Source: Thermoanaerobaculia bacterium
GTDB taxonomy: Bacteria > Acidobacteriota > Thermoanaerobaculia > UBA5066
DNA: 64,000 nucleotides
Direction: 5' to 3'
Assembly (NCBI GenBank): GCA_963816185.1
Contig: CAWFJJ010000028.1
Location: forward strand, 64,001-128,000
Below are positions 6,796-55,070 of this stretch, piece by piece (the first letter of the stretch is position 1; each line of letters starts with the position of its first letter). A program made the position numbers and the translations under genes. Under the pieces are notes generated by a model. It was given only the letters and a program-made list of their open reading frames with translations, did no database searches and was not told the origin of the DNA.

Positions 6796-8418
6796 TTGAA
6801 AGAGGCTTCCGGTTCCCTTCGGATCCCCGTCCTTCTCGCCGCGGCGGCGGCTCTGATCTACATGGTCGCCGCGGTGGGGCGCGACTTCTGGGCGCCCGAC
6901 GAGCCTGATTTCGCCGAGCAGGTGCGCGAGATGCTCGAGCGAAAGAGCGTTCTCCTGCCGTATCAGAACGGAAAGCCGTACTCGGAGAAGCCGATCTTCT
7001 TCTACTGGGCGGTGGCGGCGACGACGCCGCTCTCCGGGGGCGACGTGAGGCCCTTCGCGACGCGCCTGCCGTCGGTTCTCGCCGGCGCGGCCCTCGTTTT
7101 TTGCGCCGCGGCTTTCGCGGGCAGGCGCGGGGGAGACCGCGAGGCCCTCGTCGCGGGCGCGGCGACCGCCGTCGCGCCGATCGTCTTCTGGCAGGGACAG
7201 TTCCTTCAGGTCGACGCTCTCTTTTCCTGTTTGCTGATGCTCAGTCTGGTTTCGGTGTTTTTCTTAGAAGGTGAAGAGAGGCACGGCACGCGCTGGCTCT
7301 GGGCGCTGCGTTTTTCGATCGCGCTCGCCGTGCTGACCAAGGGCCCGCTGGCGATCGTCTTGGTGGGATTGGTCGTCCTCTCCCGCTGCGCGATGGCCAG
7401 GTCCTTGCGGCTCCTTGGCCGTCTGCAACCCATTCGAAGCATCCTCGTCTTTCTTCTCCTCGTGGTCCCCTGGTACTACCTTGCGGCGCGCGCCGGCGGC
7501 CCGACGTACGCCTACGACCTCGTCGTGAATCAGAACTGGAACCGCTTTTTCCGGGCCTTCGACCACATCCAGCCGTGGTGGTTCTATCTCGAGAGCATCT
7601 GGAGCGACTTCTTCCCGTGGACGGCGCTCGCGCTCGGAGCGCCCTTCGTGCTCGCCCGCGCGGGCCTCCTTCGCGAGCGGCCGGAGCTGCGGTTCGCCGT
7701 GACCGCCGCCGCGGTGATCTTCGTGTTCCTCTCCGTTTCGCAGTCCAAGCAGGGCAAGTACCTGCTCCCCGCTTATCCGTTCGCGGCGGTTCTCGTGGCG
7801 GCGCTCGCGGCGGAAGCGGAACGCAAAGCCGCGACGGGCGGAGGCGGCCTGCTCCGGGCCGTGCGCGCCTGGATCGCGCTCGCCGCGATCGTCCTCTTCG
7901 TCGGGGCGATCGCGCTCGCACCGGCCGTGCACCGGTTCGCGGCCGAACAGGCAGGCCTCGTGCCGTTCGCCGCGATTCCGATCGGCCTCGGGGCCGCCGC
8001 GACGCTCGTCATCCTGGCCGGGCGGCGGCTTGAAATAGTCCCCGCGATGCTCGCTCTCGCCGCGACTCTCGCGGCGGGGGAGGTCGCGGCGGGCGCCGTG
8101 GTATTCCCGGCGATCGATACCCTGAAGACGGGAAGGCCCTTTTACGAGCGCCTGCGTCCGCTTGTTTCACACGGCGAGCCCCTCGCCTACTTCGGAGACA
8201 CGTACCGCTGCTATCCGATCCTCGTTCTCCGGCGGAAGACCGAGCACTTCAGGAGCGACGCCGCGCTCGCGGAATGGATCGAGAGAACCCCCGGAGCCCT
8301 CGTGCTCGTGGACGAGAGCGAGCGGAGGCACTGGAGGGACGGCCGTCTCTCGCGACTCGTCGTCCTGGACCGGCAGCGGGTGGGCGGCGACGAGGCGCTG
8401 CTCCTGGGACGGCCATGA
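6796..8418 (+). CDS. ArnT/PMT-like GT-C glycosyltransferase
   Basis: PDEPDF, YSEKP, RLPS, LTKGP, K..KYLLP motifs; many TM segments. Confidence 0.9.
   Translation: MKEASGSLRIPVLLAAAAALIYMVAAVGRDFWAPDEPDFAEQVREMLERKSVLLPYQNGKPYSEKPIFFYWAVAATTPLSGGDVRPFATRLPSVLAGAALVFCAAAFAGRRGGDREALVAGAATAVAPIVFWQGQFLQVDALFSCLLMLSLVSVFFLEGEERHGTRWLWALRFSIALAVLTKGPLAIVLVGLVVLSRCAMARSLRLLGRLQPIRSILVFLLLVVPWYYLAARAGGPTYAYDLVVNQNWNRFFRAFDHIQPWWFYLESIWSDFFPWTALALGAPFVLARAGLLRERPELRFAVTAAAVIFVFLSVSQSKQGKYLLPAYPFAAVLVAALAAEAERKAATGGGGLLRAVRAWIALAAIVLFVGAIALAPAVHRFAAEQAGLVPFAAIPIGLGAAATLVILAGRRLEIVPAMLALAATLAAGEVAAGAVVFPAIDTLKTGRPFYERLRPLVSHGEPLAYFGDTYRCYPILVLRRKTEHFRSDAALAEWIERTPGALVLVDESERRHWRDGRLSRLVVLDRQRVGGDEALLLGRP
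7258..7442. repeat. Paired inverted motif locus A
   Basis: Left TTCTTAGAAGGTGAA 7261-7275; degenerate right arm ACCCATTCGAAGCAT (core 7433-7441). Confidence 0.6.
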
Positions 8419-11016: not shown

Positions 11017-11018
11017 CC

Positions 11019-12898: not shown

Positions 12899-14496
12899 CC
12901 TTCGAGCCCGGCCATCAGGCGTCCGAGCGTGGCAAGGGGCGTCGCGGGCTCGAGAGAACCCGACAGTCCGCCGCGGTAGACGACGCGAATCGGCGCGCCG
13001 AAGAGCTGCGCTTCGTCCGGATCCGCCGTGACGACGAGGGCGGCGGTCCCGGAGCGGCAGGCGTCGAGGATCCGGCTTCTGACGGCGGCAGCGGAAGCGA
13101 GATCGAGGCCCCGCGTCGGATGGACGGCGACGAGAAGCCCGGGACGGAGCGCGAGCTCGCGCGCGAGAACGGCCTTCTGCTGGTTCCCGCCCGAGAGGGA
13201 GCCCGCCGGGGCGTCGGAAGAGGAGTAGCGAACGCCGAACGCGCTCAGCCGCGCCTCGGCAAGCGCACGCATCGCCGTGCGGTCGAGGAAGATCCTGCCG
13301 GGAGGATTCGGGAGCGCGAGATTCTCCTCGAGGGACAGCGCCGCGACGAGGCCTTCCTCACGCCGGTCCGCAGGCACGAAGGCCCCGCCCGCGGCGCGAA
13401 ACGCGAGCGGGTCGCCCGAGGACGGCAGCGGGACGCCGCCGACCTCGACGCGTCCCGAGAAGGGCTCGAGTCCCGCGATCGCACGGGCGATCGTGTCTGC
13501 GCCGTTCCCGTCGATCGCGAGGAGGACGAGAAGCTCGCCGGAGGAGAGGGAAAGAGAAACTCTTTCTGCTCGGACTCTTCGCGCCTGCTCTGGTGCGAAG
13601 CCGGTGAGCGCGAGGCCCGGGAAATACGGCCCTTGGCCGGAGCGGTCCTCGAGCGGCACGCTGCCCTCTTCACCTTCTAAAGGATCTTTCTCTTTCTCTT
13701 CTTCTTTCCCTGTTATGAAGCCCTCCGCGTTCGCAAGCAGAAGTCCCCCGATCTCCTGCGGCGTCGTCTCGCTCGTTCGGCAGGTCTTGACCGACCGCCC
13801 CCGGGCGAGGAGCGTGAGCCGGTCGGCGCCCGCGAAGACCTCGGCGAGGCGGTGCGTGATGAGGACGACGGCGGCGCCGGCGCCGACGCGTTTTCTGAGG
13901 GACGCGAAGAGCGCCGCCGTTTCGTCGGGAGAAAGGACAGCCGTCGGCTCGTCGAGGATGAGGATGGCCGGGTCGCCGGCGAGCGCACCCGCGATCTCGA
14001 TGCGCTGGCGCGTTCCGACGGGCAACGCGTCGGCGCGGGCGTCCGCATCGCCGAGCTCGAGCCCGAACGCCTGCCCGAGGCGTGCGACACGGGCGCGCCG
14101 CGACGCGGCGGATTCGAAGAGAGGCGCCGCGGGATCGAGGAACGCGAGATTGTCGGCGACGCTCGCCGCACCGATCAGGAGATCGTGCTGCGGCACGAGA
14201 ACGAGCCCGGCGTGGCGGGCGTCGCGAGCGCCGCGAAACGACACGGGTGATCCGGCTCGCAAGATCTCGCCCGAATCGGCCACGAGCCTCCCCGCGGCGA
14301 TCGACACGAGGGTGGATTTCCCCGCGCCGTTCTCGCCGAGGAGGGCGTGGATTTCGCCGGGGAAGACGACGAGATCTGCTTCGGAAAGAGCCTGGGTGTC
14401 GCCGAAGCGCTTCGAGATGCGGCGGAGCTCGAGAGACGGGAGAGAAGACGAAGACGGAGACGAAGAGGAAGATTTCTTAGAAGGGTGTGCGGGCAT
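12895..14496 (-). CDS. Sugar/nucleoside ABC ATPase (two NBDs)
   Basis: GENGAGKST, LDEPT, LSGGNQQK. Start 14496 or 14541, both inside motif locus C. Confidence 0.9.
   Translation of the reverse strand: MPAHPSKKSSSSSPSSSSLPSLELRRISKRFGDTQALSEADLVVFPGEIHALLGENGAGKSTLVSIAAGRLVADSGEILRAGSPVSFRGARDARHAGLVLVPQHDLLIGAASVADNLAFLDPAAPLFESAASRRARVARLGQAFGLELGDADARADALPVGTRQRIEIAGALAGDPAILILDEPTAVLSPDETAALFASLRKRVGAGAAVVLITHRLAEVFAGADRLTLLARGRSVKTCRTSETTPQEIGGLLLANAEGFITGKEEEKEKDPLEGEEGSVPLEDRSGQGPYFPGLALTGFAPEQARRVRAERVSLSLSSGELLVLLAIDGNGADTIARAIAGLEPFSGRVEVGGVPLPSSGDPLAFRAAGGAFVPADRREEGLVAALSLEENLALPNPPGRIFLDRTAMRALAEARLSAFGVRYSSSDAPAGSLSGGNQQKAVLARELALRPGLLVAVHPTRGLDLASAAAVRSRILDACRSGTAALVVTADPDEAQLFGAPIRVVYRGGLSGSLEPATPLATLGRLMAGLEG
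13669..13710. repeat. Motif locus B (right arm plus CT tract; left arm not clear)
   Basis: TTCACCTTCTAAAGGATCTTTCTCTTTCTCTTCTTC in the inter-NBD linker. Confidence 0.55.
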
Positions 14497-14575
14497 CTGC
14501 GCAAGGGAACCGCCCCAGCCGCGCCTGTGGGCAGAGCCCATTCACCCTTCTAAGAATCTTCGCGCCGAAGGCGCG
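14470..14575. repeat. Paired inverted motif locus C
   Basis: GATTTCTTAGAAGGGTG (core 14474) ... TTCACCCTTCTAAGAATCTT (core 14548), then hairpin CGCGCC-GAA-GGCGCG. Confidence 0.85.
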
Positions 14576-14606
14576 CGGTCTTCTCTTCGGATGTTCTTTC
14601 GCTGTC

Positions 14607-15587: not shown

Positions 15588-15622
15588 GTCTCGATTATGC
15601 CGTCGAGACCTATGATCGAAAG

Positions 15623-16225
15623 GTGTCGCTCCATCTCGACGCGGCGGCCCGTAAGAGCATCCTCGACTTCGTCCGGCCTCTCTCCGTCGGGATCGACGGC
15701 GTCACGAACTTCGGCTTCGTGGAGAGGAGGCTGAGGATTTCGGACTTCTTAGAAGGTGAAGAGGGAAGGGGCGATGTGGCGGGAGAGGCTGGAGCGGATC
15801 CGGCGCGCCTCTTTCTCCTGGGCGCTTTCGCCGGCCTCCCATCGGCTCGGCGCATCACACCCGACGGCCGCGAGGCTCTGCTCCTGCGCTCTCTGCATAT
15901 TCCATTCGAAGAAATCTCTTCTCTTTCTCTTTCTCTCTCCCGCCTCGAGTCTTCGCCTGAATCGCCCGAAGAGAGAATCGTCCACGACGCGATGCTCCTC
16001 GAATCCGTCGGCGCGTACGGAGTCACGCAGCTTCTCGTCGCCGGGGCGCGCGAGCGGATGACGCTCGCCGAGATGGCGCAGGAGATCGAGGAGAAGATGG
16101 AATCGGCGCGGTTCGCGACGGAGGCCGGCCGGCGCCTCGCGGCCGATCGCGTCGCCTTCGCGACCCAGTTCGCGCGGAAGCTCGCCGAGGAGGCGCGGGA
16201 GTTCGAGCCCGTCGCACCGGGTTGA
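15623..16225 (+). CDS. Degenerate HD-domain (YedJ-like) protein
   Basis: IVHDAMLLESVGAYG and FATEAGRRLAADR resemble the HD C-terminal motifs; TATGAT -10 box 7 bp before the GTG. Confidence 0.6.
   Translation: MSLHLDAAARKSILDFVRPLSVGIDGVTNFGFVERRLRISDFLEGEEGRGDVAGEAGADPARLFLLGAFAGLPSARRITPDGREALLLRSLHIPFEEISSLSLSLSRLESSPESPEERIVHDAMLLESVGAYGVTQLLVAGARERMTLAEMAQEIEEKMESARFATEAGRRLAADRVAFATQFARKLAEEAREFEPVAPG
15746..15940. repeat. Paired inverted motif locus D
   Basis: TTCTTAGAAGGTGAA 15746-15760 ... TTCCATTCGAAGAAAT (core 15905), then a long CT tract. Confidence 0.75.
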
Positions 16226-16236: not shown

Positions 16237-17033
16237 TCACTCCCCGCCCGGCGTCGATCTCCCTGCATCCACGGTGACGACCTGGCCGGTCATCGACCGG
16301 TTCTCGAGCACGACGATCGCCATGGCGGTGAGGTCTTCGACGTTCACTTTGCGTGCGAGAGGCGTCCTGGCGACGAGGGCCGCGACCGCCTCGGCGCTCA
16401 TCTCCGCGGGCGGCAGGACGACTCCCGGGGCGAGCGCGTTCACCCGCACCTCGGGGCCGAGGGCGACGGCGAGGTTGCGCACGAGAGCGTTGATCGCCGC
16501 CTTGGCGGCCGAGTGCGGGATGTGCGACGGCCACGCCTGCGTCGCCGCGACGTCGGAGATGAAGAGGATCGATCCCTGCGCGGCGCGGAGCGCCGGCAGA
16601 GCAGCCTGCGCGAGGAAGAATGCGGCGCGGGGGCCGGCGCGAAAAACCGCCTCCCAGTCGGCGAGGCGACACGGAAGAGAAGGGCTTCGGGATCCACGGA
16701 GACGCGGCGTGAACGAGGGCATCGAGGCGGGGGGAAGAGCGCGAGAGATGCGGCGAAGAGGAAGAGAGAAGAGAGACGAAGAGAAGATTTCTTCGAATAG
16801 TTTGTGCGGCGCGTCGTCAGTGGCGAGATCGACGTGGAAGGCTTCGGCGCGGATGCCCTCTTTCCTTCTAAGAAGAATTTCCACCGCCGGCCTGCCGCTT
16901 CGGCACGGCTCGTGTAGGAAGTCAGAGCGATCGAATAGCCCTCGTCTGCCAACGCCTTCGCGAACTCGAAGCCGAGCCGCTTCGCCCCGCCCGTGACGAG
17001 GGCGACCTTCGCGGCGTTCCTCGCGTCCGTCAC
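16237..17033 (-). CDS. SDR oxidoreductase (pteridine reductase/FolM-like), several frameshifts 16650-16900
   Basis: ALVTGGAKRLG in one frame, LDALVHAAS in another, HSAAKA...RVNALAPG...MTGQVVTVDAG in a third. Confidence 0.75.
16755..16880. repeat. Paired inverted motif locus E
   Basis: GA tract, ATTTCTTCGAATAG (core 16789) ... TTTCCTTCTAAGAAGAA (core 16866). Confidence 0.75.
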
Positions 17034-30105: not shown

Positions 30106-30926
30106 CGGGTCGCGACGGGCTTCCCGAGTCGGCTCTCGCGGCGTCGGACGAGGAACGCGCTCCCGTCGGTGCAGACCCCGAAAAGCGCCGGCGCATTCTC
30201 GAGGCCGCCGTGCGGACGTTCGGCCGGCGCGGGTTCCACGAGGCCCGTATCGCCGAGATCGCGGCCGCGGCAAAGGTGGCCGAGGGCACCGTCTACCTCT
30301 ATTTCCGCAACAAGGAAGATCTCCTGGGCGTCGTGTTCGACGAGTCGATGGACGGGGTTCTCGAGAAGGGCCGCGCGCTGGCTCGGTCGAAGGCGCCCGC
30401 CGGCGAGCGGCTCACGGCGCTCGTGGACCTCCATCTCCAGTTCATCGGCTCGGACCGCGACCTTGCGTCGGTCTTCCAGATCGAGCTCAGGCGTAGCGCC
30501 CGGCTCGTCGAGCGCTTTTCGCGGAGCAAGCTCGTCGAGTATTTCCGCCTCCTCGGCAGCGTCCTGCGTGACGGCATCGCGCGCGGGGAGTTCCGCCGCG
30601 GCCTCGACCCCCGTCTCGCCGTGCGCATTCTCTTCGGCGCCGCCGACGAGATCCTCTCGGAGTGGCTGCTGTCGGGAGACAAGAAGCCGATCGCGGACGC
30701 ACGTCAACTGGTCGGGACGCTTCTCGACGGGTTCGCTGGAGAGGGACAAAGGGAATCTGCTTCGAAAGGGAAGACGGCGGCGGGCGGGCCCCGTACGCGC
30801 CGAGGAACGCAGCAGTTTTCCGCCGCGCGCCTCCGGAATTCACCCTTCGAAGTACGCGCCGAAGGCGCGAACAACGGTACGAAGCACGGCAAGGTGGCCT
30901 CAATGCGCAGGAGTAAACCCCAGTGA
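30093..30926 (+). CDS. TetR-family fatty-acid regulator (FadR/YsiA-like) with C-terminal extension
   Basis: IAAAAKVAEGTVYLYFRNKEDL, VFQIELR; heads the beta-oxidation operon. Confidence 0.88.
   Translation: MAHSAGRDGLPESALAASDEERAPVGADPEKRRRILEAAVRTFGRRGFHEARIAEIAAAAKVAEGTVYLYFRNKEDLLGVVFDESMDGVLEKGRALARSKAPAGERLTALVDLHLQFIGSDRDLASVFQIELRRSARLVERFSRSKLVEYFRLLGSVLRDGIARGEFRRGLDPRLAVRILFGAADEILSEWLLSGDKKPIADARQLVGTLLDGFAGEGQRESASKGKTAAGGPRTRRGTQQFSAARLRNSPFEVRAEGANNGTKHGKVASMRRSKPQ
30755..30869. repeat. Paired inverted motif locus F
   Basis: ATCTGCTTCGAAAGGGAA (core 30758) ... TTCACCCTTCGAAGTA (core 30846), then CGCGCC-GAA-GGCGCG. Confidence 0.75.
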
Positions 30927-32179: not shown

Positions 32180-34458
32180 TGTCCACTCTCGTCGACGAAA
32201 CCGTTCCCGCCACGGCTCCGGCCGGCTCGCTGTCACCCTTCCGGCTCACCGTCGAGCCGGATGGCCTCGCGCTCCTCGTCTTCGACACGCCGGGCGAGAA
32301 GGTGAACAAGTACTCGACCCCCGTCATGAAGGAGTTCGAGAGCGTCGTCGACGGCCTCGCCGCGCGGACGGACGTGAAAGCGCTCCTCTTTCTCTCGGCC
32401 AAGCCGGGAGTCTTCATCGCCGGCGCGGACGTGAACGAGATCGCCAAGGCCGACCAGAACGCGGATCCCGAGATGATCCGGGCCGGGCACCGGATCTTCA
32501 ACAAGCTCGCGAACCTGCCTTTTCCCACGGTCGCCGCGATCGGCGGCGCGTGCGTGGGCGGGGGCTGCGAAACCGCTCTCGCGATGGACTGGCGGCTGGC
32601 GTCCGACTCGCCCAAGACCCAGATCGGCCTCCCGGAGATCAAGCTCGGCATCCTGCCGGCGTGGGGCGGCACGACCCGTCTCCCGCGCATGATCGGCCTC
32701 GCGAACGCCCTCGACGTCATCCTTGCGGGGAAGGTCCTCGACGGCAAGCGCGCGAAGAGGATCGGCCTCGTGGACGAGGTCGTCCCGGCGACCATCCTCG
32801 AAGACTGGGCGAAGACGTTCGCCCGCGGGAAGTTCGGGACGAAGAAGCGCTCGAACGCGGGTCCGGGCGGCGCGCCGGCGCGCGTCCGCGAGCCGAAGCT
32901 CGTGGAGAAGCTCCTCGAAGGGCCCGGAAAGAGCATCGTCTTCTCGAAAGCTCGCCAGTCGGTCCTGAAGGAGACGAAGGGCCAGTACCCGGCGCCTCTC
33001 GCCGCCCTCTCCGTCATCGAGAAAGGATTCGGCGAGGATTTCAAGAAGGCGCTCGAATTCGAGGTCGAAGGCATCAGGTCTCTCATCGGCACGCCGGTCA
33101 TGCGGAGTCTCGTGGGCCTCTTCTTCCGAATGGAAGAGGTCAAGAAGGAGACGGGCGTGGAAGCGCTCGGGGCTCCGGGCGCCGGCATCAAGCCGCGGAA
33201 GATCGCGCGCATTGGCGTCCTGGGCGCGGGCGCCATGGGAGGCGGCATCGCCCAGCTCGCCGCCGACAAGGGCTACCCGACGCGCATGAAGGACATCAAG
33301 GCCGAGGCGCTGGCGCTCGGATATGCGCAGGCGGCGCGTATCTGGAAGGAGCTGCTCAAGAAGCGCCGGATGACCCGCGCCGATTTCGCGAGGAAGATGG
33401 CGCTCCTGAGCGGATCGCTCGAGTACGCGGGCTTCGAGGGCTGCGACATCACGATCGAAGCGGTGCTCGAGAAGATGGCCGTCAAGCAGGCGGTGCTGGC
33501 CGACTGGGAGCACGTCGCTCCCGCGAAGGCGATCTTCGCCTCCAACACCTCGACCCTTCCGATCACCGAGATCGCGTCGAAGGCGGCGCACCCCGAACGC
33601 GTCGTGGGGATGCACTTCTTCAACCCCGTGAACAAAATGCCTCTCGTCGAGGTCATCTACGGCGCGAAGACCGACCCCGAAGTGACGGCGACGATCTTCG
33701 ACCTCGCGAAGAAGCTGGGGAAGACGCCGGTCGTCGTCAAGGACTCGCCCGGCTTCCTCGTGAACCGCATCCTGAGCCCTTACATCGGCGAGGCGGCGCG
33801 GCTCCTGCTCGAAGGCAGCTCGATGGAGTCCGTCGATCAGGCGATGCGCGCGTTTGGAATGCCGGTGGGCCCGATCGAGCTCCTCGACGACGTCGGGATC
33901 GACGTCGCCGCCAAGGCCGGCGGGACGATGTCGGCCGCCTTCCCGGCGCGCATGCCTGCGGATCCGACTCTCGAAAAGCTCGTCGACGCGGGGCGACTCG
34001 GGCGGAAGGCGAAGAAGGGATTTTATTTCTACGAAAGGGAAAAGAGGGGCGGCCCCGATCCGGACGCATACCGCGATCTCGGACTCTCTTCACCTTCAAA
34101 GAATCCGAGTCTTTCTTCCTCCGAGATCCAGGACCGCCTGGTCCTCCCGATGATCAACGAGGCGGCCTTTTGCCTCGCGGAAGGCATCGTCGCGCGCCCC
34201 GCGAAGCTCGACCTCGCGATGATCTTCGGTACCGGCTTCCCGCCCTTCCGCGGCGGCCTGTGCGCGTACGCGGATTCCCTGCGGCGCGAAGGCGGTCGTC
34301 GAGGGCCTCGAGAAGCTCGCGCCGAGAAGGGTCCGCGCTTCACACCCGCCCCGCTTCTGGTGGAGATGGCCGAAGACCGAGAGAGAGAGATTTCTTCGAA
34401 TGTCGTGCGAGGGTCGGCAGCGCAAGACCACATTCACCTTCTAAGAAACACGCTCTGA
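32179..34458 (+). CDS. fadJ: Fatty-acid oxidation complex alpha subunit (enoyl-CoA hydratase/3-hydroxyacyl-CoA DH)
   Basis: FIAGAD, GLPEIKLG, GAGAMGGG, GMHFFNPV, GTGFPPFRGG; compensating indels near 34280-34320. Confidence 0.92.
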   Translation: MSTLVDETVPATAPAGSLSPFRLTVEPDGLALLVFDTPGEKVNKYSTPVMKEFESVVDGLAARTDVKALLFLSAKPGVFIAGADVNEIAKADQNADPEMIRAGHRIFNKLANLPFPTVAAIGGACVGGGCETALAMDWRLASDSPKTQIGLPEIKLGILPAWGGTTRLPRMIGLANALDVILAGKVLDGKRAKRIGLVDEVVPATILEDWAKTFARGKFGTKKRSNAGPGGAPARVREPKLVEKLLEGPGKSIVFSKARQSVLKETKGQYPAPLAALSVIEKGFGEDFKKALEFEVEGIRSLIGTPVMRSLVGLFFRMEEVKKETGVEALGAPGAGIKPRKIARIGVLGAGAMGGGIAQLAADKGYPTRMKDIKAEALALGYAQAARIWKELLKKRRMTRADFARKMALLSGSLEYAGFEGCDITIEAVLEKMAVKQAVLADWEHVAPAKAIFASNTSTLPITEIASKAAHPERVVGMHFFNPVNKMPLVEVIYGAKTDPEVTATIFDLAKKLGKTPVVVKDSPGFLVNRILSPYIGEAARLLLEGSSMESVDQAMRAFGMPVGPIELLDDVGIDVAAKAGGTMSAAFPARMPADPTLEKLVDAGRLGRKAKKGFYFYEREKRGGPDPDAYRDLGLSSPSKNPSLSSSEIQDRLVLPMINEAAFCLAEGIVARPAKLDLAMIFGTGFPPFRGGLCAYADSLRREGGRRGPREARAEKGPRFTPAPLLVEMAEDREREISSNVVRGSAAQDHIHLLRNTL
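34024..34120. repeat. Paired inverted motif locus G
   Basis: ATTTCTACGAAAGGGAA (core 34027) ... TTCACCTTCAAAGAAT (core 34095). Confidence 0.7.
34379..34449. repeat. Paired inverted motif locus H
   Basis: (GA)n ATTTCTTCGAATG (core 34392) ... TTCACCTTCTAAGAAA (core 34439). Confidence 0.8.
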
Positions 34459-36293: not shown

Positions 36294-36400
36294 GTTTTTC
36301 TTAGAATGGTAATGAGGCCCAGGGCGCGCCGCGTCGTCACCGCGGATGACGAACGGCGTGGCACGTCGCAGCGCTCTTCCTCTCCTTCATTCATAGAAAC
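36294..36400. repeat. Paired inverted motif locus I
   Basis: TTTTTCTTAGAATGGTAA (core 36298) ... CCTTCATTCATAGAAAC (core 36390). Confidence 0.65.
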
Positions 36401-42917: not shown

Positions 42918-44146
42918 CGGCCGTTCTCGCCGTCATAGCCTTTCTCTGGCTGCTCCGCGCGGCGAACGTCGCGCTGAGCTTTGCCCTGATTCCCCGGCTC
43001 GCGCCGGCGCCCCGGAGAGAGGCCGGCGTACCCTTCGTGTCGATCGTCGTTCCGGCGCGAAACGAAGAGCGCGACGTCGGGGACGCGACGCGCAGCAAGT
43101 GCATGCAGGACGACCCGTCCTTCGAGGTCGTCGTCGTGGACGACCGGTCCTCGGACGGCACGCGCCGCATCCTCGCGGGCCTCGAGCGCGAATTCCCGAA
43201 GGTCCTCTCGGTCGTCGACGGAGTCGAGCCGCCGCCCGACTGGCTCGGCAAGCCGCACGCGCTGGACGAGGGGGCACGTGCGGCACGCGCGCGGGCGTCC
43301 TCCGAATGGCTGATCTTCTCGGACGCCGACGTGCACTTCGCGCCGGACCTCCTGGCCCGCGCATTCACGCACGCGGAGCGCGAGCGCCTCGACTTCCTGA
43401 GCCTATTCCCGGCGCTCGAGATGAAGTCGTTCGGGGAGAGGCTCATGACGCCGTCCGATCGCGAACGTCGGGTTCTGCTACCTGCCCGGCTGGCTGATGA
43501 ATCGTTCCGCGGGCGCGCTCCTTCGGCGGGGGAGCAGGCGTCTTCAACCTCGTACGACGTGACCTCTTCGACAGGATCGGCGGGCACGCGGCCCTGAGAG
43601 AGCTCGGTCGTCGACGACATCCAGCTCGGCCGCAACGCGCGATTGGCCGGCGGCCGGACCGGAGGCGCGTGGGCGCTCGACGCCGTCTCCGTGCGCATGT
43701 ACCACGGCTTTCGGGAGACCGCGAAAGGGTTCGCCAAGAACGGCTATTACGGAATTGGCGCAAACGTGCCCGCGGCGGTGCTTTGCCTTCTGCTGTTTTT
43801 CTTAGAAGGTGAATTGGCATACGGCGTACTCGCCGGTGGCGCGCTCGAGTGGGGTGCACGGCACGCCGGCGCTGCGGGCGCGGCATTTTCCGACAGCCGC
43901 GTCCTCGCACCCGCCCTGTTCACTTTCAAAGAAATCCTCTTCTCCTTCTTGATTGTCGCGCTGACGCTTCTCGTGCGCGGGGCTCTGCACATGAAGCTCC
44001 GTTATTCGTGGCTCGGAGTCGTCCTGCATCCCGTATGGATCGCCGCGGTCACCGGCATTTTCGCGTGGTCGACGTTCGTGAACGGCGTGCTCGGGAGGAA
44101 CGAGTGGCGCGGGCGCGTGCGCGACGCCGGGACGCTCGAGTTCTGA
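42914..44146 (+). CDS. GT2 membrane glycosyltransferase (HpnB/CrtQ-like), frameshifts 43450-43600
   Basis: VPARNEE, VDDRSSDGT, WLGKPHA, FSDAD; GGH and VVDD appear in shifted frames; MYHG and WRGR at the C-terminus. Confidence 0.78.
43796..43950. repeat. Paired inverted motif locus J
   Basis: TTTTTCTTAGAAGGTGAA (core 43799) ... TTCACTTTCAAAGAAAT (core 43925), then a CT tract. Confidence 0.8.
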
Positions 44147-46785: not shown

Positions 46786-48240
46786 GATGCGCCTCGGTCA
46801 TTGCTTCGGTCTGGGCCGCCGTCATCCTCGCGGCACCGCCGCTTGCGGCTGCCGAACCCGCCCACGCGGCTTCTAAGAAATCCCCGGTTTCCCGGGTCTC
46901 TTCGGTCGATACCCTCGATCACGGCCGCGCACGTCCTGACGATGGACGGCTCGGATCGCGTCTTTTCTCCCGGTGCGGTGGCGATCAAGGGCGGCGCGAT
47001 CGTCGCGGTCGGCGCTCCGTCAGATCTCCTTCGTCTCTATTCTCCGAAGCAGAGGATTTCCCGTGCCCATTCGGTCGTCCTGCCGGGGCTGATCAACACG
47101 CACACGCACGCCGCGATGAACCTGCTGCGCGGCATCGCGGACGACCTCCCGCTCATGGACTGGCTGACGAAGTTCATCTTTCCGGCCGAGGCGAAGAACG
47201 TCTCGCCCGGCTTCGTGAAGGCCGGAACGCTCCTCGCGTGCGCGGAGATGGTCCGCGGCGGCACGACGACGTTCGCCGACATGTACTACTACGAATCGGA
47301 CGTCGCGGCGGCGGTGGACACGTGCGGGATGCGCGCCGTCCTGGGCGAGACGTGGCTCGACTTCCCCGTACCCGACCACAAGGACCTCGCCGATTCGATC
47401 AAGGTGACCCGCGCCTTCCTCGAGAAATGGAAGGGCCACCCGCGCATCATCGCGGCCGTCGCCCCGCACGCGCCGTATACGAACGCGAAGGAGTCTCTCC
47501 AGGCTGCGAAGGCTCTTGCGGACGAGTTTCACGCCCCGCTCCTCATTCACCTTTCCGAAACACGCGACGAGCAGAAGCAGCTCGCGGGGAAGTATGGGAC
47601 GACGCCCACGAACTGGCTCGAATCGATCGGCTTCCTGGGTCCGAACGTCCTCGCGGCCCACTGCGTCTGGTGCGACGCGGACGACCTCCGCCTCCTTTCC
47701 GAGCGGCACGTCGGCCTCTCGCACAACCCCGAGTCGAACATGAAGCTCGGGTCCGGGGTCGCGCCCGTCGTGGCGGCGCGTCGCGTCGGCATCGCCGTCG
47801 GCCTCGGGACGGACGGCGTCGCGGGCTCGAACAACGACCTCGACATGTGGGAGGCGATGGACTTCGCCGGGAAGCTCGCGAAAGTCTCTTCGATGGACCC
47901 GACGGTGCTGCCGGCGAGAGACCTCCTCCGGATGGCGACGATCGAGGGCGCGCGGGCGATGAAGATGGACGATCGCATCGGCTCGCTCGAGAGGGGGAAG
48001 CGAGCGGATCTCGTGGCGGTGGACCTCGTCCGGGCGGGGACGCAACCCGTGTGGGACCTGTTCTCGACCCTCGTCTACGTCGTCAAGGAAAGTGACGTCT
48101 CGCTCACGATGGTGGAAGGACGCGTCCTCTGGGACGGCAAACGCGTCACGTCTCTCGACGAGGCGAAGGTCATCCGGGACGCCGAGGCGTGGCGGAAGAG
48201 GATCGCGGCGTCGCTCACGGCGCCCGCCGCGGCGAAATGA
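46782..48240 (+). CDS. MtaD/DadD-like nucleoside deaminase (amidohydrolase) with signal-like N-terminus, frameshift near 46918
   Basis: PGLINTHTH, APHAPYT, HLSET, HNPESNMKL, LGTDG. Confidence 0.85.
46866..46882. repeat. Motif locus K (right-arm core only)
   Basis: TTCTAAGAAAT at 46871, encoding SKKS. Confidence 0.5.
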
Positions 48241-50286: not shown

Positions 50287-52967
50287 GCCTCCCTTCCGGC
50301 TCGCGGCTAGGCCCTTACGAGATCCTCGCCCCCATTGGCGCGGGCGGGATGGGCGAGGTCTACCGGGCCAGGGACCCGCGCCTCGAACGAATGGTCGCCC
50401 TAAAGGTTCTGCCGGAAGAGCTCTTCGAAGACAAAGAAAGGGTCGTGCGCTTCGAGCGGGAGGCAAAGTCGCTCGCCGCGCTGAATCACCCGAACGTCGC
50501 GGCCATCTACTCATTCGAGGAGAGTGGGGGCCGGCACATCCTCGTCATGGAGCTCGTCTCGGGCGAGACGCTGCGCGAGCGCCTGAAGGCTGGAGGACCG
50601 CCCGCCCGGACGACGCTCGATGTCGGCGCGCAGATCGCGCGCGGCCTCGCCGCGGCTCACGAGAAAGGCATCGTTCACCGCGACCTGAAGCCGGAGAACG
50701 TCGTCCTGTCGAAGGACGGCCGCGTCAAGATCCTCGATTTCGGCCTCGCGAAGCTCTCGCCGCGGGTCGGGGCCGAAGAGGACCTCACGTCGGCCGGGAC
50801 GCAGTCGCTCCTCACCGATGCGGGCGCCGTGTTCGGGACGGCGGGCTACATGTCTCCGGAGCAGGTGCGGGGCGAGCCCGTCGACACCCGCTCCGACATA
50901 TTCAGCTTGGGGACGATCCTCTACGAGCTGCTGTCCGGGGAGAACCCGTTCCGGAAAGGCACGTCCGCCGAGACGATGACGGCGATCCTTCTGCAGGAGC
51001 CGCCGCCTCTGTCCGAAGCGCCGGCCCCGCCGCTGCCAGCGCTCGCGGCGATCGTGGCGCGTTGCTTGGAGAAGAAGCGCGAGGCGCGTTTCCAATCCGC
51101 GGCCGATCTGGGGTTCGCGCTGGAGACCTCGTCCGGGTCCTCGTCTCCCGCCGCTACCGGCATTCCGGGCCGCCTGCTCCGTGGTCGTTCTCGTCGGGCG
51201 GTGGCTGGCGCCGTTGCGGCAGGAGTCGCACTCGCCGCGCTTGCGGTGGGGCTCCTGCGAACGCGCACGCCGCAGGTTGCCGCCAGAGGGGCGATTCGGT
51301 TCTCCGTGGCACCTCCGGCGAACGGCGCCTTCGCGTACTGGCTGGAGGCCAGCTTCCTGGCGATGTCGCCCGACGGATCGCAGCTCGCGTACGTGGCCTG
51401 GGACCACGCGGGCGACCTGGGCGGCCGGGCCGCAAGGGTGTTTCCGACAGGGGGACGGCGCGTGTGGCTTCGGCCGCTGTCCACGCTAAAGGCCCGGCCG
51501 CTGGCCGGGACACAGGATGCCTCGTCGGTCTTTTGGTCGCCCGACGGCCATTCGATCGCCTTCTTCGCGGAAGGCAAGCTGAAGCGCCTCGACCTCCCGG
51601 AAGGCTCACCGGTCACGATCTGCGACGTGCCCACCGGCGTCGGCAGGTCGGGAACGTGGGGCCGCAGCGGCGACATTCTCTTCGCCAGCGTCCAGGGCGA
51701 GGCGATCTACCGCCTTTCCGCCTCCGGCGGCGTGCCGGTCGCGGTGCTGAAGTCAGACCCCTCGCGCGGCGAGCTGCGCGTCGCCTGGCCCTGGTTCCTG
51801 CCGGACGGAGAGCGGTTTCTCTATCTCGTCAGGCTTCGCGAGGGTTGGAACCTGATGCTCGCGGAGTCCGGAAAACCGGCGCGTGCTCTCACGGCGATGG
51901 CCTCGAGGGTGCAGTTCGTCGACCCGGGATATCTCGTCTTCGCGCGGGAGGGAGCGCTCCTCGGCCAGCGATTCGACTCGCGAACCGGGCGTCTGGCGGG
52001 CGGTCCCTTCTCGATCGCCGAAAGGGTGCGGCACTTCGTCACGACTGGCGCCGCCTCGTTCGCGACGTCCCTCACCGGCGCGCTCGCCTTTCAGTCGCAG
52101 GACGACGTGCAGCGTCTGGTGTGGTTCGACCGGGCCGGGCGGGACGTCGGGACCGTCGGCGCGCCCGGCGAACTTCTCACGGCCGTGATCGCCCCCGATG
52201 GCAGACAGATCCTGTTCGACCGCTCGCCTCCGGGGATCGGGACGGACGTCTGGTCGTTCGATCTCGAAAGATCCGTGGAGACGCGCGTGACCGTGGGGCC
52301 CGACACCCACTCGATGCCCATGTGGCTTCGCGGCGGCAAGAGCGTCGTCTATTCGACCGGGCGGGGACGTCCGCCGCACCTTTTCCGCCGGGACCTCACG
52401 ACCGGGAAGGAAGAGGAGCTCGCCTTGGGCGGAGGCTTTCAGATGGCACTGGACGTCTCGCCCGACGGCCGGTCGCTCGTGTACGGCGAGCGGACCGACC
52501 GCGGCCCGTTCGACTTCTGGATGCTTCCGCTCTCCGGGCAAGGCAAACCGACAGCTCTGCTGCAGTCGCCGTTCAACAAGGACCAGGCGCGTTTTTCGCC
52601 CGACGGCCGCTTCATCGCGTTCATCTCCGACGAGTCCGGAAAGCCCGAGATCTACGTGATGCCCTGTCCGGGGCCGGGCGAGAGGATCCGCATCTCGACC
52701 GGAGGGGCACGGCTCCTGCGCTGGAGCCGCGAGGGCGAGCTTCTCTATCTTTCCAGTGACCTGCGGATGACGTCGGTGCCGGTCCGGACATCTCCTTCAC
52801 TCCAGATCGGCGCTCCGAGGACGCTCTTCGCGCTGAAGGGAGAGCCCTGGGTAAGCTTCGATGTTTCGCCCGACGGGAAGCGATTCCTCGCCATCGTGCC
52901 GGAGGTCGTGGTGGATCAGCTTCCGCTCACGGTCGTCGTGAACTGGCCGTCCGACGTGGAGAAGTAA
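50283..52967 (+). CDS. Hanks-type Ser/Thr kinase with TM and PD40/TolB-like beta-propellers
   Basis: GAGGMGEVY, HRDLKPEN, DFGLA, YMSPEQ; repeated SPDG blades. Confidence 0.93.
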   Translation: MSLPSGSRLGPYEILAPIGAGGMGEVYRARDPRLERMVALKVLPEELFEDKERVVRFEREAKSLAALNHPNVAAIYSFEESGGRHILVMELVSGETLRERLKAGGPPARTTLDVGAQIARGLAAAHEKGIVHRDLKPENVVLSKDGRVKILDFGLAKLSPRVGAEEDLTSAGTQSLLTDAGAVFGTAGYMSPEQVRGEPVDTRSDIFSLGTILYELLSGENPFRKGTSAETMTAILLQEPPPLSEAPAPPLPALAAIVARCLEKKREARFQSAADLGFALETSSGSSSPAATGIPGRLLRGRSRRAVAGAVAAGVALAALAVGLLRTRTPQVAARGAIRFSVAPPANGAFAYWLEASFLAMSPDGSQLAYVAWDHAGDLGGRAARVFPTGGRRVWLRPLSTLKARPLAGTQDASSVFWSPDGHSIAFFAEGKLKRLDLPEGSPVTICDVPTGVGRSGTWGRSGDILFASVQGEAIYRLSASGGVPVAVLKSDPSRGELRVAWPWFLPDGERFLYLVRLREGWNLMLAESGKPARALTAMASRVQFVDPGYLVFAREGALLGQRFDSRTGRLAGGPFSIAERVRHFVTTGAASFATSLTGALAFQSQDDVQRLVWFDRAGRDVGTVGAPGELLTAVIAPDGRQILFDRSPPGIGTDVWSFDLERSVETRVTVGPDTHSMPMWLRGGKSVVYSTGRGRPPHLFRRDLTTGKEEELALGGGFQMALDVSPDGRSLVYGERTDRGPFDFWMLPLSGQGKPTALLQSPFNKDQARFSPDGRFIAFISDESGKPEIYVMPCPGPGERIRISTGGARLLRWSREGELLYLSSDLRMTSVPVRTSPSLQIGAPRTLFALKGEPWVSFDVSPDGKRFLAIVPEVVVDQLPLTVVVNWPSDVEK

Positions 52968-52988: not shown

Positions 52989-55070
52989 GTGCTGTACAGG
53001 CTCGAAAACGTCCGCAAGAGCTTCGGGACGAAGGACGTCCTTCTGGACGCCACGTGGCAGCACGATCCGGGGCGGATCGTGGGCCTCGTGGGGCGGAACG
53101 GCGCCGGCAAGTCGACCGTCCTGAAGATCGTCCAGGGGCTCGTGGAGCCCGACGGTGGCAAGCTGCACGTCGCGGGCGGAACTACGTTCGCGTCGCTCGA
53201 CCAGGCGGTCGAGCCCGAAGGCGACGAGCCGCTTCGGGCATTCGTGGCGCGCGCCCAGGAGCCGCTTCTCGCGCTGGAGCGCGAGATGCGCCGCCTCGAG
53301 GAGGCGATCGCCACGCACGGCGCCGACGGCGACCGCGGGGCGCTCGACGCGCTCCTGGCCGAGCACGACGACGTGCGCGAGCACTTCGAAAGAGCGGGCG
53401 GTTACGAGGCGGACGCGCGCGTGGACCGGGTGCTGATGGGCGTCGGGCTCGCGCGCGCGCTCTGGGAGAGGCCCGTGGGCGAGCTGTCGGGCGGGCAGAA
53501 ACATCGCGCGCAGATCGCCCGGCTCCTCCTGACGGACGCCTCGGTTCTCCTCCTCGACGAGCCCACGAACCATCTCGACGTCGACGGAATCGAGTTCCTC
53601 GAGACCTGGATCGTGGAGCGGAAGGCGAACGCCGGCCTCTCGGCGCTCGTCGTCTCCCACGACCGCCGCCTTCTCGATGCCGTCGCGGACCGGATCGTCG
53701 AGGTCGCGCACGGCCGTCTCGAAGACTACCCGGGCGACTACGCTACCTACCGCAAGCTCAAGGCCGAGCGCGAGCGTCTCCGCGCGAAGGAGGCCGAGAA
53801 GCAGCGGCAGATGATCGAGCGGACCGAAGAGTTCATCCGCCGGAACATCGCCGGCCAGAAGACGAAGCAGGCGCGCTCGCGGCGCACGATGCTCGCGCGG
53901 ATCGAGCGAATCGAGGCGCCGCGGGAGGATGCGAACGAGGTCTCGATCCGGTTCGAGGAGGCGCGCATCTCCGGAGGGCGCGTGCTCGAGGCGAAGAAGG
54001 TCGTGCCCGGCTACCGGGAGACGGGACCGCTTCTTCAGCCCGTGTCGTTCCTCCTCCGCCGCGGGGACCGCCTCGCGCTCTGGGGCCCGAACGGCTGCGG
54101 CAAGACCACGCTTCTGAAGACGCTCGCGCGCGTACTCCCTCCGATCTCCGGCTCGGCCGTGCCGGGTACCGGAGTCCTCACCGGCTACTACGACCAGGAG
54201 ATGGGCGACCTTCCGGTCGAGGCGACGGCGCTCGACGCGGTGATGGATCTCGATCCCACGATGAAGGAAAGCGAGGCACGCGATTTCCTCGCGCTCTTCG
54301 ATTTCCGCGGCGACGAGGTCTTCCAGCGAATCGCGACTCTCTCGGGCGGCGAGAAAGGGCGCCTCTCGCTCGCACGCATCGTCTTCGGCGGCGCGAACTT
54401 CCTCCTGCTGGACGAGCCCACGAACCACCTCGACCTCGACGCCCGCGAGCAGCTCGAGGACGCGCTGGAGGCTTTCGAGGGCGCGATCATCTTCGTAAGC
54501 CACGACCGCTGGTTCGTGGACCGCATCGCGACGGAGATTCTCGAGATCGCGCCCGGAGGCGCGGTCGAGCTGCACCCGGGCAACTATTCGGATCTCGTGA
54601 AGAGGAAGAAGGAAATTCTTGCTCCCTCGCGGGACGACTCGGCGGAGCGCGGCGACCTACGGTGGGGCTCGGGAAACGCTGTTTCTTCTTCGAAGGGGAA
54701 GAGAGACAAAGATTCTTCGAAGGGCAAGACCGGTCGCGGCGCACCCCGCACCGCTGGAGCGCAGCCCGCTGCTTCCGCTGGACACACACCTTCTAAGAAA
54801 TCCTCGTCTTCTTCCGACCGCGCCGCCGAACGGCGGCGCGCAAAGAACGAGAGAATCCTCGCCGTGCTGGAAGAGGAGATTGCGCGTCTCGAGGAGGAGA
54901 TCCGCTCGCTCGATCTTTCCCTCGCGAACCCCGACGTCTTCCGCGACGGGGACAAGGTCCGGCAGGTGAAGTCCGCTCGCGAGCAGGCTCGCAGGACCCT
55001 CGAGGCGAAGCTGTGGGATTGGGAGGAGACCTCCCGCAAGCTTCAGACGAGCGCCGAGGTCCCGGCGTGA
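52989..55070 (+). CDS. ABC-F family ATPase (Uup/YdiF-like)
   Basis: Two NBDs (GRNGAGKST; GPNGCGKTT; LDEPTNHLD twice) and a C-terminal coiled coil. Confidence 0.93.
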   Translation: MLYRLENVRKSFGTKDVLLDATWQHDPGRIVGLVGRNGAGKSTVLKIVQGLVEPDGGKLHVAGGTTFASLDQAVEPEGDEPLRAFVARAQEPLLALEREMRRLEEAIATHGADGDRGALDALLAEHDDVREHFERAGGYEADARVDRVLMGVGLARALWERPVGELSGGQKHRAQIARLLLTDASVLLLDEPTNHLDVDGIEFLETWIVERKANAGLSALVVSHDRRLLDAVADRIVEVAHGRLEDYPGDYATYRKLKAERERLRAKEAEKQRQMIERTEEFIRRNIAGQKTKQARSRRTMLARIERIEAPREDANEVSIRFEEARISGGRVLEAKKVVPGYRETGPLLQPVSFLLRRGDRLALWGPNGCGKTTLLKTLARVLPPISGSAVPGTGVLTGYYDQEMGDLPVEATALDAVMDLDPTMKESEARDFLALFDFRGDEVFQRIATLSGGEKGRLSLARIVFGGANFLLLDEPTNHLDLDAREQLEDALEAFEGAIIFVSHDRWFVDRIATEILEIAPGGAVELHPGNYSDLVKRKKEILAPSRDDSAERGDLRWGSGNAVSSSKGKRDKDSSKGKTGRGAPRTAGAQPAASAGHTPSKKSSSSSDRAAERRRAKNERILAVLEEEIARLEEEIRSLDLSLANPDVFRDGDKVRQVKSAREQARRTLEAKLWDWEETSRKLQTSAEVPA
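54682..54815. repeat. Paired inverted motif locus L (two left arms)
   Basis: TTCTTCGAAGGGGAA (54686), TTCTTCGAAGGGCAA (54713) ... CACACCTTCTAAGAAAT (core 54791). Confidence 0.85.

Follow-up and report, generated by a model that had tools for sequence, protein, structure and literature searches.

Inward-facing pairs of an asymmetric motif in Thermoanaerobaculia genomes, read as possible recognition sites for a DNA-binding protein

What kind of genetic element is formed by two copies of a short, asymmetric DNA motif that face each other across a segment of unrelated sequence, and why would a bacterial chromosome carry hundreds of them? This question is raised by a 64,000-nucleotide stretch of DNA (positions 64,001 to 128,000 of contig CAWFJJ010000028.1, assembly GCA_963816185.1) from a Thermoanaerobaculia bacterium, a member of an abundant, uncultured soil lineage. 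An earlier interpretation made from the letters of this stretch alone, here called the sequence-only reading, listed ten such motif pairs and two apparent singletons. We examined the motif in the whole stretch (the window), in the 5.09-Mb assembly to which the window belongs (30 contigs, 95% complete) and in the genomes of relatives. The inward-facing pair is the unit of a motif family that comprises ~300 pairs in this genome, located both between and inside genes. The explanation that we tentatively prefer, paired recognition by a DNA-binding protein, is weighed below against its rivals.

A motif family organized in inward-facing pairs

The window, whose G+C content is 66-70%, contains 10 copies of the exact 9-mer TTCTTAGAA (starts at 7261, 14474, 14548, 15746, 16866, 34439, 36298, 43799, 46871 and 54791), whereas 0.04 copies are expected from 100 dinucleotide shuffles; the sequence-only reading had therefore counted correctly and had rightly placed the number far above chance. 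A degenerate 15-mer, when allowed up to two mismatches, is found 13 times against 0.18 expected. The genome-wide weight-matrix scan proposed by that reading extends the enrichment to the entire assembly, which carries 337 copies of the 9-mer and 956 arms with a score of at least 16 (~one per 5 kb), compared with 296 for the reversed matrix. At a score of at least 20, the corresponding counts are 790 and 114. Occurrences of the 15-mer are balanced between the strands (62 and 70). The motif family is a real, non-chance system that operates at the nucleotide level.

When the 337 genomic sites are read toward their partners, the resulting logo begins with ~25 purine-rich bases, continues with A(A/T)T TTCTT(A/C)GAA GG(G/T)GAA and ends in a G-rich stretch. 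The well-defined part of each arm spans ~16-20 bases, (A/T)TTTCTT(A/C)GAAGG(T/G)GAA(G/T)RGGG, and is asymmetric, with the ~25 purine-rich bases on its outer side. Two details noticed in the window also proved accurate. The GGTGAA tails point inward in the printed sequence of all ten pairs and both singletons, and the GA-rich tracts outside left arms and CT-rich tracts outside right arms recur genome-wide, both in the logo of the 337 sites and in 165 oriented elements.

Arms that neighbour each other within 400 bp in the window's genome form 307 inward pairs, 20 outward pairs and 65 + 65 tandem pairs, and the same count at 108 loci of other genomes yields 169 inward, 8 outward and 23 + 28 tandem arrangements. 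The non-random orientation seen in the window is thus a genome-wide property. Among 614 strong arms, 78% have an inward-facing partner with a score of at least 16 at a distance of 40-300 bp, a proportion that rises to 85% with a looser partner score; the outward controls are 2% and 5%, respectively. This obligate pairing is accompanied by a defined geometry. For the 204 pairs of the window's genome that are modelled as residing outside genes, the core-to-core spacing has a floor at ~64 bp, a mode at 74-78 bp, a median of 93 bp and a tail that extends past 200 bp. An exact-arm pair pattern whose gap range permits spacings of 56-86 bp places 58 of the 106 pairs from other genomes at 74-77 bp. 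The sequence-only reading had suggested a check for 10.5-bp phasing of the spacings, and none was found. A signal in the window's genome (p = 0.005) arises from the single 74-78 bp mode and is lost when that mode is removed (p = 0.54), and no signal is present in other genomes (p = 0.33).

Longer spacings were also sought in metagenomes, where 41 stretches were recovered. Of these, 22 are AT-rich and unrelated, including 14 with a spacing of 109 that align as a single locus, and 19 are GC-rich, with 9 of them spaced 94-96 bp; the 19 are possibly orthologues of one another. The exact paired pattern also matches one AT-rich locus (~37% G+C; loci L171-L208) of an unrelated organism on many metagenome contigs, a chance match that urges caution with raw pattern counts in such data.

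The taxonomic range of the motif is sharply bounded. We counted 15-mers with at most one mismatch, for which a reversed-pattern control gives 0-3 matches per strand. All 28 genomes of the window's genus carry the motif, with 48-258 copies per genome, and so do all 8 genomes of a second genus of the family, with 2-30 copies whose coordinates include inward pairs 80-89 bp apart. Matches are found in 4 of 26 genomes from 8 other genera of the family and in 2 of 12 genomes from two other families of the order (one genome, G019, is unpublished), with 0-1 copy per genome in each of these groups. Moreover, a scan of species-representative genomes with the exact paired pattern gave 108 stretches, and all of the 80 listed lie in metagenome-assembled genomes (MAGs) of Acidobacteriota/Thermoanaerobaculia. 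The motif is a sharp taxonomic marker for the two genera.

The two arms of a pair are independent copies of one motif. Among 183 elements, a left arm matches its own right arm and permuted partners equally often at each position from -50 to +34 (largest excess +0.07). Duplex energies for own and permuted partners are -24.2 versus -23.7 kcal/mol for the inner flanks (p = 0.13) and -18.2 versus -17.2 kcal/mol for the outer flanks (p = 0.027). When 18 members of the best-conserved subfamily are submitted to RNAalifold in either orientation, the invariant 12-bp base alone is recovered, with 0 compensatory pairs. The folding of interiors relative to shuffles has a mean z of -0.57, compared with -0.22 for nearby control DNA. 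Finally, sense-strand differences among 165 oriented elements are of the G.U type in 684 cases and of the A.C type in 665 (p = 0.62). A cruciform or long-stem RNA, one of the candidates of the sequence-only reading, is therefore disfavoured, since there is no covariation, no element-specific pairing (arms pair equally well with foreign arms) and no G.U bias; the covariation, duplex-energy, RNAalifold, shuffle and wobble tests all speak against it. The 165 elements that lie between same-strand genes have upstream- and downstream-arm logos that are indistinguishable from each other, and thus the element lacks polarity relative to transcription.

Arms and interiors between and inside genes

Arms are conserved above the DNA that they enclose. 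In this comparison, each related species contributes a single genome, and orthologous elements cannot be counted as independent. For orthologous non-coding elements of five relatives, identity is 72-91% in the arms and 45-79% in the interiors (one shortened element of genome G011 is left out), and the length of the interiors varies freely. Within the window's genome, a blastn comparison of the 307 interiors with one another finds no relative for 246 of them, which upholds for most pairs the claim that interiors are unrelated. This claim fails for the other 61, most of which come from a single family of paralogous genes whose pairs are spaced 93 bp, and for a small true subfamily described below. 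These paralogues, in which the arms are flanked by ...AIKVLPEEFFEGEE... and ...YSFEEI..., appear by eye to encode a protein kinase.

Kinase genes of this kind are numerous. The window holds one at 50349-52967, which Pfam assigns to a large paralogous Ser/Thr kinase family with PD40 repeats, and relatives carry many copies with 66-73% DNA identity to window positions 50283-51136. Several copies elsewhere in the window's genome (contig C24, ~600-620 kb) contain arm-like sequence in what appears by eye to be the N-lobe, reading LPEEFFEGEE ... YSFEEI with 93-bp spacing.

Gene positions were assigned with a home-made, frame-aware hidden Markov model (HMM), which is rough; a caller based on third-position G+C is unreliable on this assembly. 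By this model, 204 pairs lie in non-coding segments, of which 165 are between same-strand, 25 between divergent and 14 between convergent genes. Background gaps of at least 120 bp number 897, 315 and 165, respectively (1377 in total). Promoters and terminators were considered and rejected, as the arms have no orientation with respect to flanking genes, stand at no fixed distance from gene starts and are not enriched between divergent (25/204) or convergent (14/204) genes.

The HMM calls elements non-coding in part because their codons are atypical, and we therefore used a separate frame test for the 140 pairs that are flanked on either side, at a distance of 50-160 bp, by DNA that is confidently coding (the 167 others have a non-coding or mixed flank). 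The flanks share strand and frame without an intervening stop in 81 of these, are in frame with a stop in 9, are in another frame in 38 and lie on opposite strands in 12. In contrast, only 8 of 616 arm-free gaps are in frame and open (627 size-matched gaps, of which 616 have coding flanks). The arms are read in different frames from gene to gene, as FLEGE, SSKGK and FLRK or as PSKK, FEEI and HLLR, which indicates that it is the DNA and not the peptide that is conserved. A coding frame enters 172 arms, and the gene takes its stop codon from the TAG of the core in 16 of these and from the TGA of the tail in ~5. For genome annotation, arm stretches represent atypical codon usage within real genes that a simple coding model wrongly calls intergenic.

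Two genes of the window reveal how arms are held in coding sequence. In the PMT-family glycosyltransferase gene, the left arm reads TTC TTA GAA GGT/GGG GAA GAG in 6 of 6 genomes, comprising the window's genome and five relatives (G001, G003, G011, G014 and G038, the five relatives referred to below), even though TTA accounts for 0.1% of Leu, GGT for 5.8% of Gly and GAA for 18% of Glu codons. In fadB, the linker that contains pair 6 (Table 1) has the same length, within 1 residue, in the orthologues of 5 motif-free sister genera. It reads ...SPGSS... in the sister genera and ...SPSKN... in the window's genus, and the right arm is kept in all 20 aligned genomes of the genus. No extra DNA relative to element-free homologues was found at fadB, the sole locus tested in this manner. 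The PMT left arm and the fadB pair show that arms can arise and be held in native sequence. From their translations, the interiors of the short-chain dehydrogenase and kinase-like pairs also read as native domain sequence.

Some host genes contain frame breaks. A +1/-1 indel pair near 34250-34330 in fadB causes ~20 residues to depart from five orthologues, and the short-chain dehydrogenase gene at 16237-17000 (minus strand) is readable only across three frames. These breaks are either assembly indels, perhaps of a long-read MAG, or signs of decaying genes. As a consequence, annotation of this genome that relies on open reading frames (ORFs) is unreliable.

The elements of the window are collected in Table 1. 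The listed pairs were confirmed, although several of their arms are weak, namely the right one at 7433, both members of 30758/30846 and the left one at 34027. Six pairs, unnoticed as such by the sequence-only reading, lie inside ORFs (PMT, a 216-residue ORF, the dehydrogenase, fadB, a 167-residue ORF and ABC-F), and a seventh, in the TetR tail, possibly does. The claim that the window lacks a transposase or recombinase agrees with a Pfam scan of 20 window ORFs, to which the check was limited.

Table 1. Motif pairs and solo arms in the window, with their genomic contexts.
Feature	Positions	Spacing (bp)	Arms and translation	Context
Pair 1	7258..7441		Perfect left arm TTTTTCTTAGAAGGTGAAGAG; degenerate right arm at ~7430-7441	PMT-family glycosyltransferase ORF 6796-8418 (+); Pfam PMT at residues 13-230, pair at ~156-215
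Solo right arm	13660..13700		TTCACCTTCTAAAGGATC + CT-rich tail; left partner decayed in this genome	
Pair 2	14434..14600		GA-/CT-rich outer flanks	Intergenic in minus-strand ABC-transporter row, between PnrA/Bmp-like binding-protein gene and ABC ATPase gene
Pair 3	15743..15913	159	...DFLEGEEG... and ...IPFEEI...	ORF 15575-16225 (+)
Pair 4	16749..16880	77	GA-rich tract read as Phe/Ser/Leu-rich insert	Minus-strand short-chain dehydrogenase gene
Pair 5	30755..30854		Both arms weak	Tail of TetR-family ORF 30090-30926, past Pfam domains
Pair 6	34024..34103	68	GFYFYERE ... SSPSKN	fadB (32179-34458, +), linker after first 3HCDH C-terminal domain
Pair 7	34389..34450	47		Junction of fadB 3' end and acyl-CoA dehydrogenase gene
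Pair 8	36295..36398		Right-arm core TTCATAGAA	Intergenic, between acyl-CoA dehydrogenase and metallo-beta-lactamase-fold genes
Pair 9	43796..43933	126	...FFLEGE... and ...FTFKEI...	ORF 43643-44146 (+), no Pfam family
Solo right arm	46868..46882			Upstream of, or in N-terminal part of, amidohydrolase ORF 46801-48240 (+)
Pair 10	54683..54799		Doubled left arm (54686 + 54713); ...SSKGK... and ...PSKKSSSS...	ABC-F ATPase ORF 52989-55070 (+)

Among the coding elements, pairs 3 and 9 each have one frame on both sides without a stop. Both arms of pair 3 occur in 5 of 5 relatives, and the pair 9 orthologue of G003 differs by 15 bp. The ORF that hosts pair 3 encodes 216 residues without a Pfam family, adjoins ABC-transporter genes and is present in all five relatives. 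For pair 4, whose arms are likewise found in 5 of 5 relatives, the Pfam domain adh_short_C2 begins downstream and the Rossmann N-terminus lies upstream in another frame. Pair 5 segments measure 177, 165, 168 and 192 in four genomes, differences that are all multiples of 3, and therefore the segment is possibly translated; in G003 and G001 the segment is 48 bp. Pair 10 (residues 566-604) occupies the linker between the second ABC domain and Pfam ABC_tran_CTD (619-680) in one open frame, and its segments in G011 and G003 differ by 15 and 6 bp.

Both apparent singletons are solo arms in the window's genome, but neither is solo in all relatives. At 13675, a left arm is present in four of the five relatives (G011, G014, G001 and G038), whereas the G003 segment is 44 bp. 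The arm at 46871 can be placed in two of five relatives, one of which, G003, has the left partner 137 bp upstream of the right arm in its orthologue of window positions 46801-46990. There, the full pair brackets the start codon and signal peptide of the amidohydrolase, as judged by eye, and the left arm provides a Shine-Dalgarno-like sequence and ATG.

Occupancy varies between species at several other loci. Pair 2, at 14474, is present in G017 (an additional relative compared at this locus), G001, G014 and G038, which include the three most distant sampled, and is missing in the closer G011 and G003. The residual bases differ between these last two genomes, as would result from independent deletions, and the GA-rich and CT-rich flanks are lost along with the element. 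Length differences for pair 2 among relatives are not multiples of 3. At the junction of fadB and the acyl-CoA dehydrogenase gene (pair 7), the last fadB codons read as a left arm in 20 of 20 genomes (TTC TTC GAA TGA, encoding FFE + stop, in most), and the interior and right arm are present in 10 and absent in 10. Pair 8 is present in G011 (where it is shorter), G003 and G038 and is absent in G014 and G001.

A protein that binds paired sites and its alternatives

The interpretation that we put first, with less than even confidence, is that the pairs are paired recognition sites for one DNA-binding protein, kept by selection or drive. Each arm would be an asymmetric site read by one sequence-specific, trans-acting factor of the lineage, most likely a DNA-binding protein that binds two sites facing each other simultaneously; a nucleoid protein, a recombinase and a domesticated transposase are possible identities. 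What lies between the arms would be a mere spacer, either inserted or native and including coding sequence, that is free to drift as long as it measures at least ~55 bp between cores and preferably 66-68 bp, which corresponds to the core-to-core spacing of 74-78 bp. Sites would be kept locus by locus since the ancestor of the two related genera, by selection or by a drive acting on the motif, and point substitutions could create new sites in place, even within conserved proteins. This proposal is based on the observations that sequence rather than complementarity is conserved, that the element is symmetric, that arms persist in genes and that the taxonomic boundary is sharp. From these features we infer a protein reader whose target is DNA, not RNA, and which would bring two sites into synapsis. 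Of the candidates put forward by the sequence-only reading, a looping or wrapping protein with paired sites and a site-specific enzyme that acts on them are still the best, if putative, readings.

A bolder form of this proposal, which we regard as a minority possibility, is that the pairs constitute a genome-wide paired-site signal and not a decayed transposon, such that a protein of the lineage needs two inward 20-base sites at least ~64 bp apart. Selection or drive would then write pairs every ~15 kb by point substitution, overriding codon usage even in conserved enzymes. If true, such a signal would be the pairwise counterpart of uptake sequences or Chi, and it could mark chromosome domains or 'self' DNA.

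Several results weigh against recognition by a DNA-binding protein. Looping predicts helical phasing, and none is left once the main spacing mode is removed (p = 0.54). The sharp length mode, the differences in presence and absence between species and the interior that can be aligned in 22 of 116 canonical-length elements (from several genomes, automatically oriented) are what a family of mobile elements would give. Enrichment between same-strand genes (165/204 versus 897/1377) would also suit a role at the RNA level, and in the core region from -2 to +11 wobble-compatible differences outnumber those of the A.C type by 129 to 92, although this region was picked post hoc. In addition, the home-made HMM and the frameshifted assembly make all coding and non-coding counts rough.

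In four read runs (2 DNA, 2 metatranscriptome), all made up of short, low-depth assembled contigs that are uninformative about such events, neither inversion nor excision was seen, and no strand-changing joint was listed at a pair. The contigs of the RNA libraries, which were examined as assemblies and not as raw reads, are mostly 90-95% alike to the window's genome and hence come from relatives. Both RNA-library runs include contigs in which the pair 8 interior is shorter and different, with 21-27 other letters in its place. Orthologous interiors have one and the same orientation in every relative that holds the element, as judged from contigs.

The strongest competitor, which we nonetheless consider doubtful, is that the pairs are old miniature non-autonomous mobile elements whose arms are terminal inverted repeats served in trans by a transposase and whose interiors have diverged. 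The inverted termini and the canonical size class (58 of 106 exact-arm pairs have a spacing of 74-77 bp) fit this idea, as do the filled and empty sites at the fadB junction (10 and 10 of 20 genomes) and at 14474 (present in 4 and missing in 2 of 6), the loss of GA- and CT-rich flanks together with the element, the restriction to two genera and the in-frame, stop-free positions in ORFs (81/140 versus 8/616), a kind of residence shared with Rickettsia palindromic elements. The 22-element subfamily with alignable interiors, whose left and right tails differ slightly from each other, is also expected of such a family; an nhmmer profile of its interior finds ~6 elements in the window's genome, 4 of them in the training set. 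However, the 246 of 307 interiors without a relative leave no recent copies to be seen, even though the arms have stayed nearly perfect and are conserved above the interiors. The pair in fadB did not come from an insertion, and the short-chain dehydrogenase and kinase-like interiors appear from their translations to be native. Target-site duplications, examined by eye at two filled/empty loci only, amount to a possible TGAG at the fadB junction and none at 14474.

A cognate enzyme for mobile elements was also sought. The Y1/RAYT transposase (PF01797) is absent from the window's genome; it was found in 2 of the 18 genomes searched within the genus and in 8 of the 12 from motif-free genera (including the unpublished G019). 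Transposases of the IS4/IS5 type, carried by 7 of the 28 genomes of the genus, are unrelated to motif load; other transposase families were not searched. The sole DDE_Tnp_1 (IS4/IS5-type) copy of the window's genome has 42-bp ends that are unrelated to the arms. The tail of the arm may resemble the terminal repeat of IS5. An autonomous element with arms as its ends might appear as a long-range inward pair, and 31 inward pairs are 0.4-6 kb apart versus 17 outward. Six of the inward ones were inspected and hold no transposase-like ORF by eye; their ORFs look, again by eye, like housekeeping genes. An origin of many copies as mobile elements may be compatible with a present function of their ends. 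As a separate observation, nine identical IS4/IS5-type transposase genes (388-residue frame) on contigs C1 and C2 of G011 indicate an active insertion sequence in that genome.

An RNA-level element is, in our view, an unlikely explanation. It holds that the 5' arm UUUCUUAGAAGG of a transcript pairs with the 3' arm CCUUCUAAGAAA to close a 12-16 bp stem around the interior, that the 5' arm offers a Shine-Dalgarno-like AGAAGGUGA and the 3' arm resembles the anti-Shine-Dalgarno end of 16S rRNA, and that an RNA-binding protein or nuclease reads the stem to affect mRNA stability or processing, or to mask Shine-Dalgarno sequences, as for REP sequences in operons. The invariant cores of any two arms indeed form a 12-bp helix, the inward orientation gives the same 5' Shine-Dalgarno-like to 3' anti-Shine-Dalgarno-like order on either strand, and purine-rich 5' and pyrimidine-rich 3' flanks could pair loosely via G.U. 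The preference for same-strand neighbours and the location of some elements at operon junctions (binding-protein gene/ATPase gene and fadB/acyl-CoA dehydrogenase gene) would be explained as well, and the wobble excess of the core region, a post hoc sum, is a weak hint of RNA pairing. The right arm also resembles the 16S 3' end of its own genome. Nevertheless, the tests of arm complementarity reported above reveal no covariation, no element-specific complementarity and no compensatory pairs in 18 aligned members, the G.U and A.C differences are equal over all positions, and interiors fold no better than shuffles. Furthermore, the solo arm of the PMT gene keeps its nucleotide sequence although it lacks a good partner, elements also lie between divergent (25) and convergent (14) genes, and no Rfam family matches at E values up to 1.

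Some sequence likenesses at the RNA level were recorded. With a 4-base gap, the right-arm consensus CATTCACCTTCTAAGAAATC is similar to the 3' end of the 16S rRNA and its trailer in the window's genome, GATCACCTCCTTT/CTAAGGGATC (contig C1:445500-445620), and the left arm reads as a strong Shine-Dalgarno-like AGAAGGTGA; the 16S resemblance could be a coincidence. GC-rich hairpins (GCGCC-GAAG-GGCGC) directly follow two right arms, at window positions 14560-14590 and 30855-30880, but hairpins and arms are not associated genome-wide (399 hairpins in total, with 18 on the outward and 19 on the inward side of a strong arm). In an Rfam search of the window, only a tRNA reaches its gathering score and no family is found on the elements even at E <= 1. 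The sole further hit at that cut-off, a sub-threshold match to RT-15 RNA at 4813-5006 (+) (26.9 bits versus a gathering score of 82, E = 0.022), is far from the elements.

Molecular drive of the uptake-sequence type, in which a bias of uptake, repair or gene conversion favours the 15-mer so that it accumulates by tolerated point mutation, genes included, would account for the genus-wide over-representation that is sparser in the neighbouring genus, for the strand balance (62/70), for rare-codon coding sites conserved between species and for the in-situ origin in fadB, but it is highly improbable given that uptake sequences are mostly solitary whereas here 78-85% of arms are paired with a 64-bp floor and a 74-78 bp mode, at a density of ~one arm per 5 kb (956 arms at a score of at least 16).

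Comparison with described repeat families

Repetitive extragenic palindromic (REP) sequences and the bacterial interspersed mosaic elements (BIMEs) of enterobacteria and pseudomonads resemble the present family in that hundreds of copies of a short motif form inverted pairs that are mostly within operons or at gene ends, non-coding and lineage-specific. Unlike these, the arm described here is not itself a hairpin-forming palindrome, partners are at least 64 bp apart and not adjacent, and at least a quarter of the pairs reside in frame in ORFs. Strict extragenic position does not hold, as 81 of 140 pairs are in an open frame (with the PMT, short-chain dehydrogenase, fadB and ABC-F pairs as instances). 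This finding, together with the lack of a RAYT in the window's genome, agrees with the sequence-only reading, which could not match the family to REP or BIME.

That reading found no match to miniature inverted-repeat transposable elements (MITEs) either, and this holds for the classical kind, because interiors are not shared (246/307) and no cognate transposase was found. Terminal inverted repeats are present, as judged by the logos of both arms. MITEs such as the Correia elements of Neisseria are alike in having terminal inverted repeats, a size of ~100-150 bp, presence/absence differences and positions at gene boundaries. They differ in that interiors are not shared here, there is no clear target-site duplication, no cognate insertion sequence is found and the arms are conserved above the interiors. 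Rickettsia palindromic elements are inverted repeats of ~100-150 bp that reside both between genes and in frame within genes, where they are translated as an extra or linker peptide, and they have no known transposase. These traits, the dual residence among them, are shared with our elements: 81 of 140 pairs lie in frame, and the ABC-F pair is flanked by Pfam domains in one frame. However, copies of the Rickettsia elements are alike over their whole length, whereas here only the ends are alike, and in fadB no insertion has taken place.

Uptake sequences (USS of Pasteurellaceae and DUS of Neisseriaceae) act singly and are mostly solitary, with inverted pairs a few bases apart serving as terminators. 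Like the present motif, they are over-represented clade-wide, occur on both strands and in genes despite unusual codons, arise by point mutation and sometimes form inverted pairs. The single motif is not the functional unit here, since 78-85% of arms have an inward partner versus 2-5% an outward one. An obligate pair with fixed orientation and a long, minimum-length spacer, a density ~five times lower and the lack of a known link to competence set our family further apart. A more distant parallel, in the manner of working only, is offered by the internal eliminated sequences of Paramecium, which are many short, single-copy segments in coding and non-coding DNA with a conserved inverted end-consensus. 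Their ends are kept for one trans-acting enzyme while interiors drift above a sharp minimum length. These eukaryotic germline segments are precisely excised, whereas coding interiors here are native, needed protein sequence, and there is no 10-bp periodicity of length.

Integron attC sites were rejected because there is no structural covariation and the sites are scattered among housekeeping genes instead of forming arrays (IntI was not searched). For parS, matS and Chi, the sole ground for setting them aside is that obligate inward pairs at ~300 loci do not suit such sites. A full-text literature search on the motif letters gave only papers that are unrelated by their titles and abstracts (supplementary files being outside its scope), and no paper was found on intergenic repeats in Thermoanaerobaculia.

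The combination of features fits no described repeat family, as REP/RAYT, classical MITEs, Rickettsia palindromic elements, uptake sequences and Rfam families each fail a tested feature. Dispersed repeats of other bacteria each led to a mechanism: REP sequences to RAYT transposases, Correia elements to RNase III processing and uptake sequences to DNA recognition by pilins. If one protein reads the sites described here, they would provide a handle on chromosome biology in Thermoanaerobaculia. What distinguishes them from these precedents is the conjunction of obligate inward pairs with a minimum spacer, non-covarying arms, unique interiors, in-frame residence and, in fadB, arms that came from substitution and are held genus-wide.

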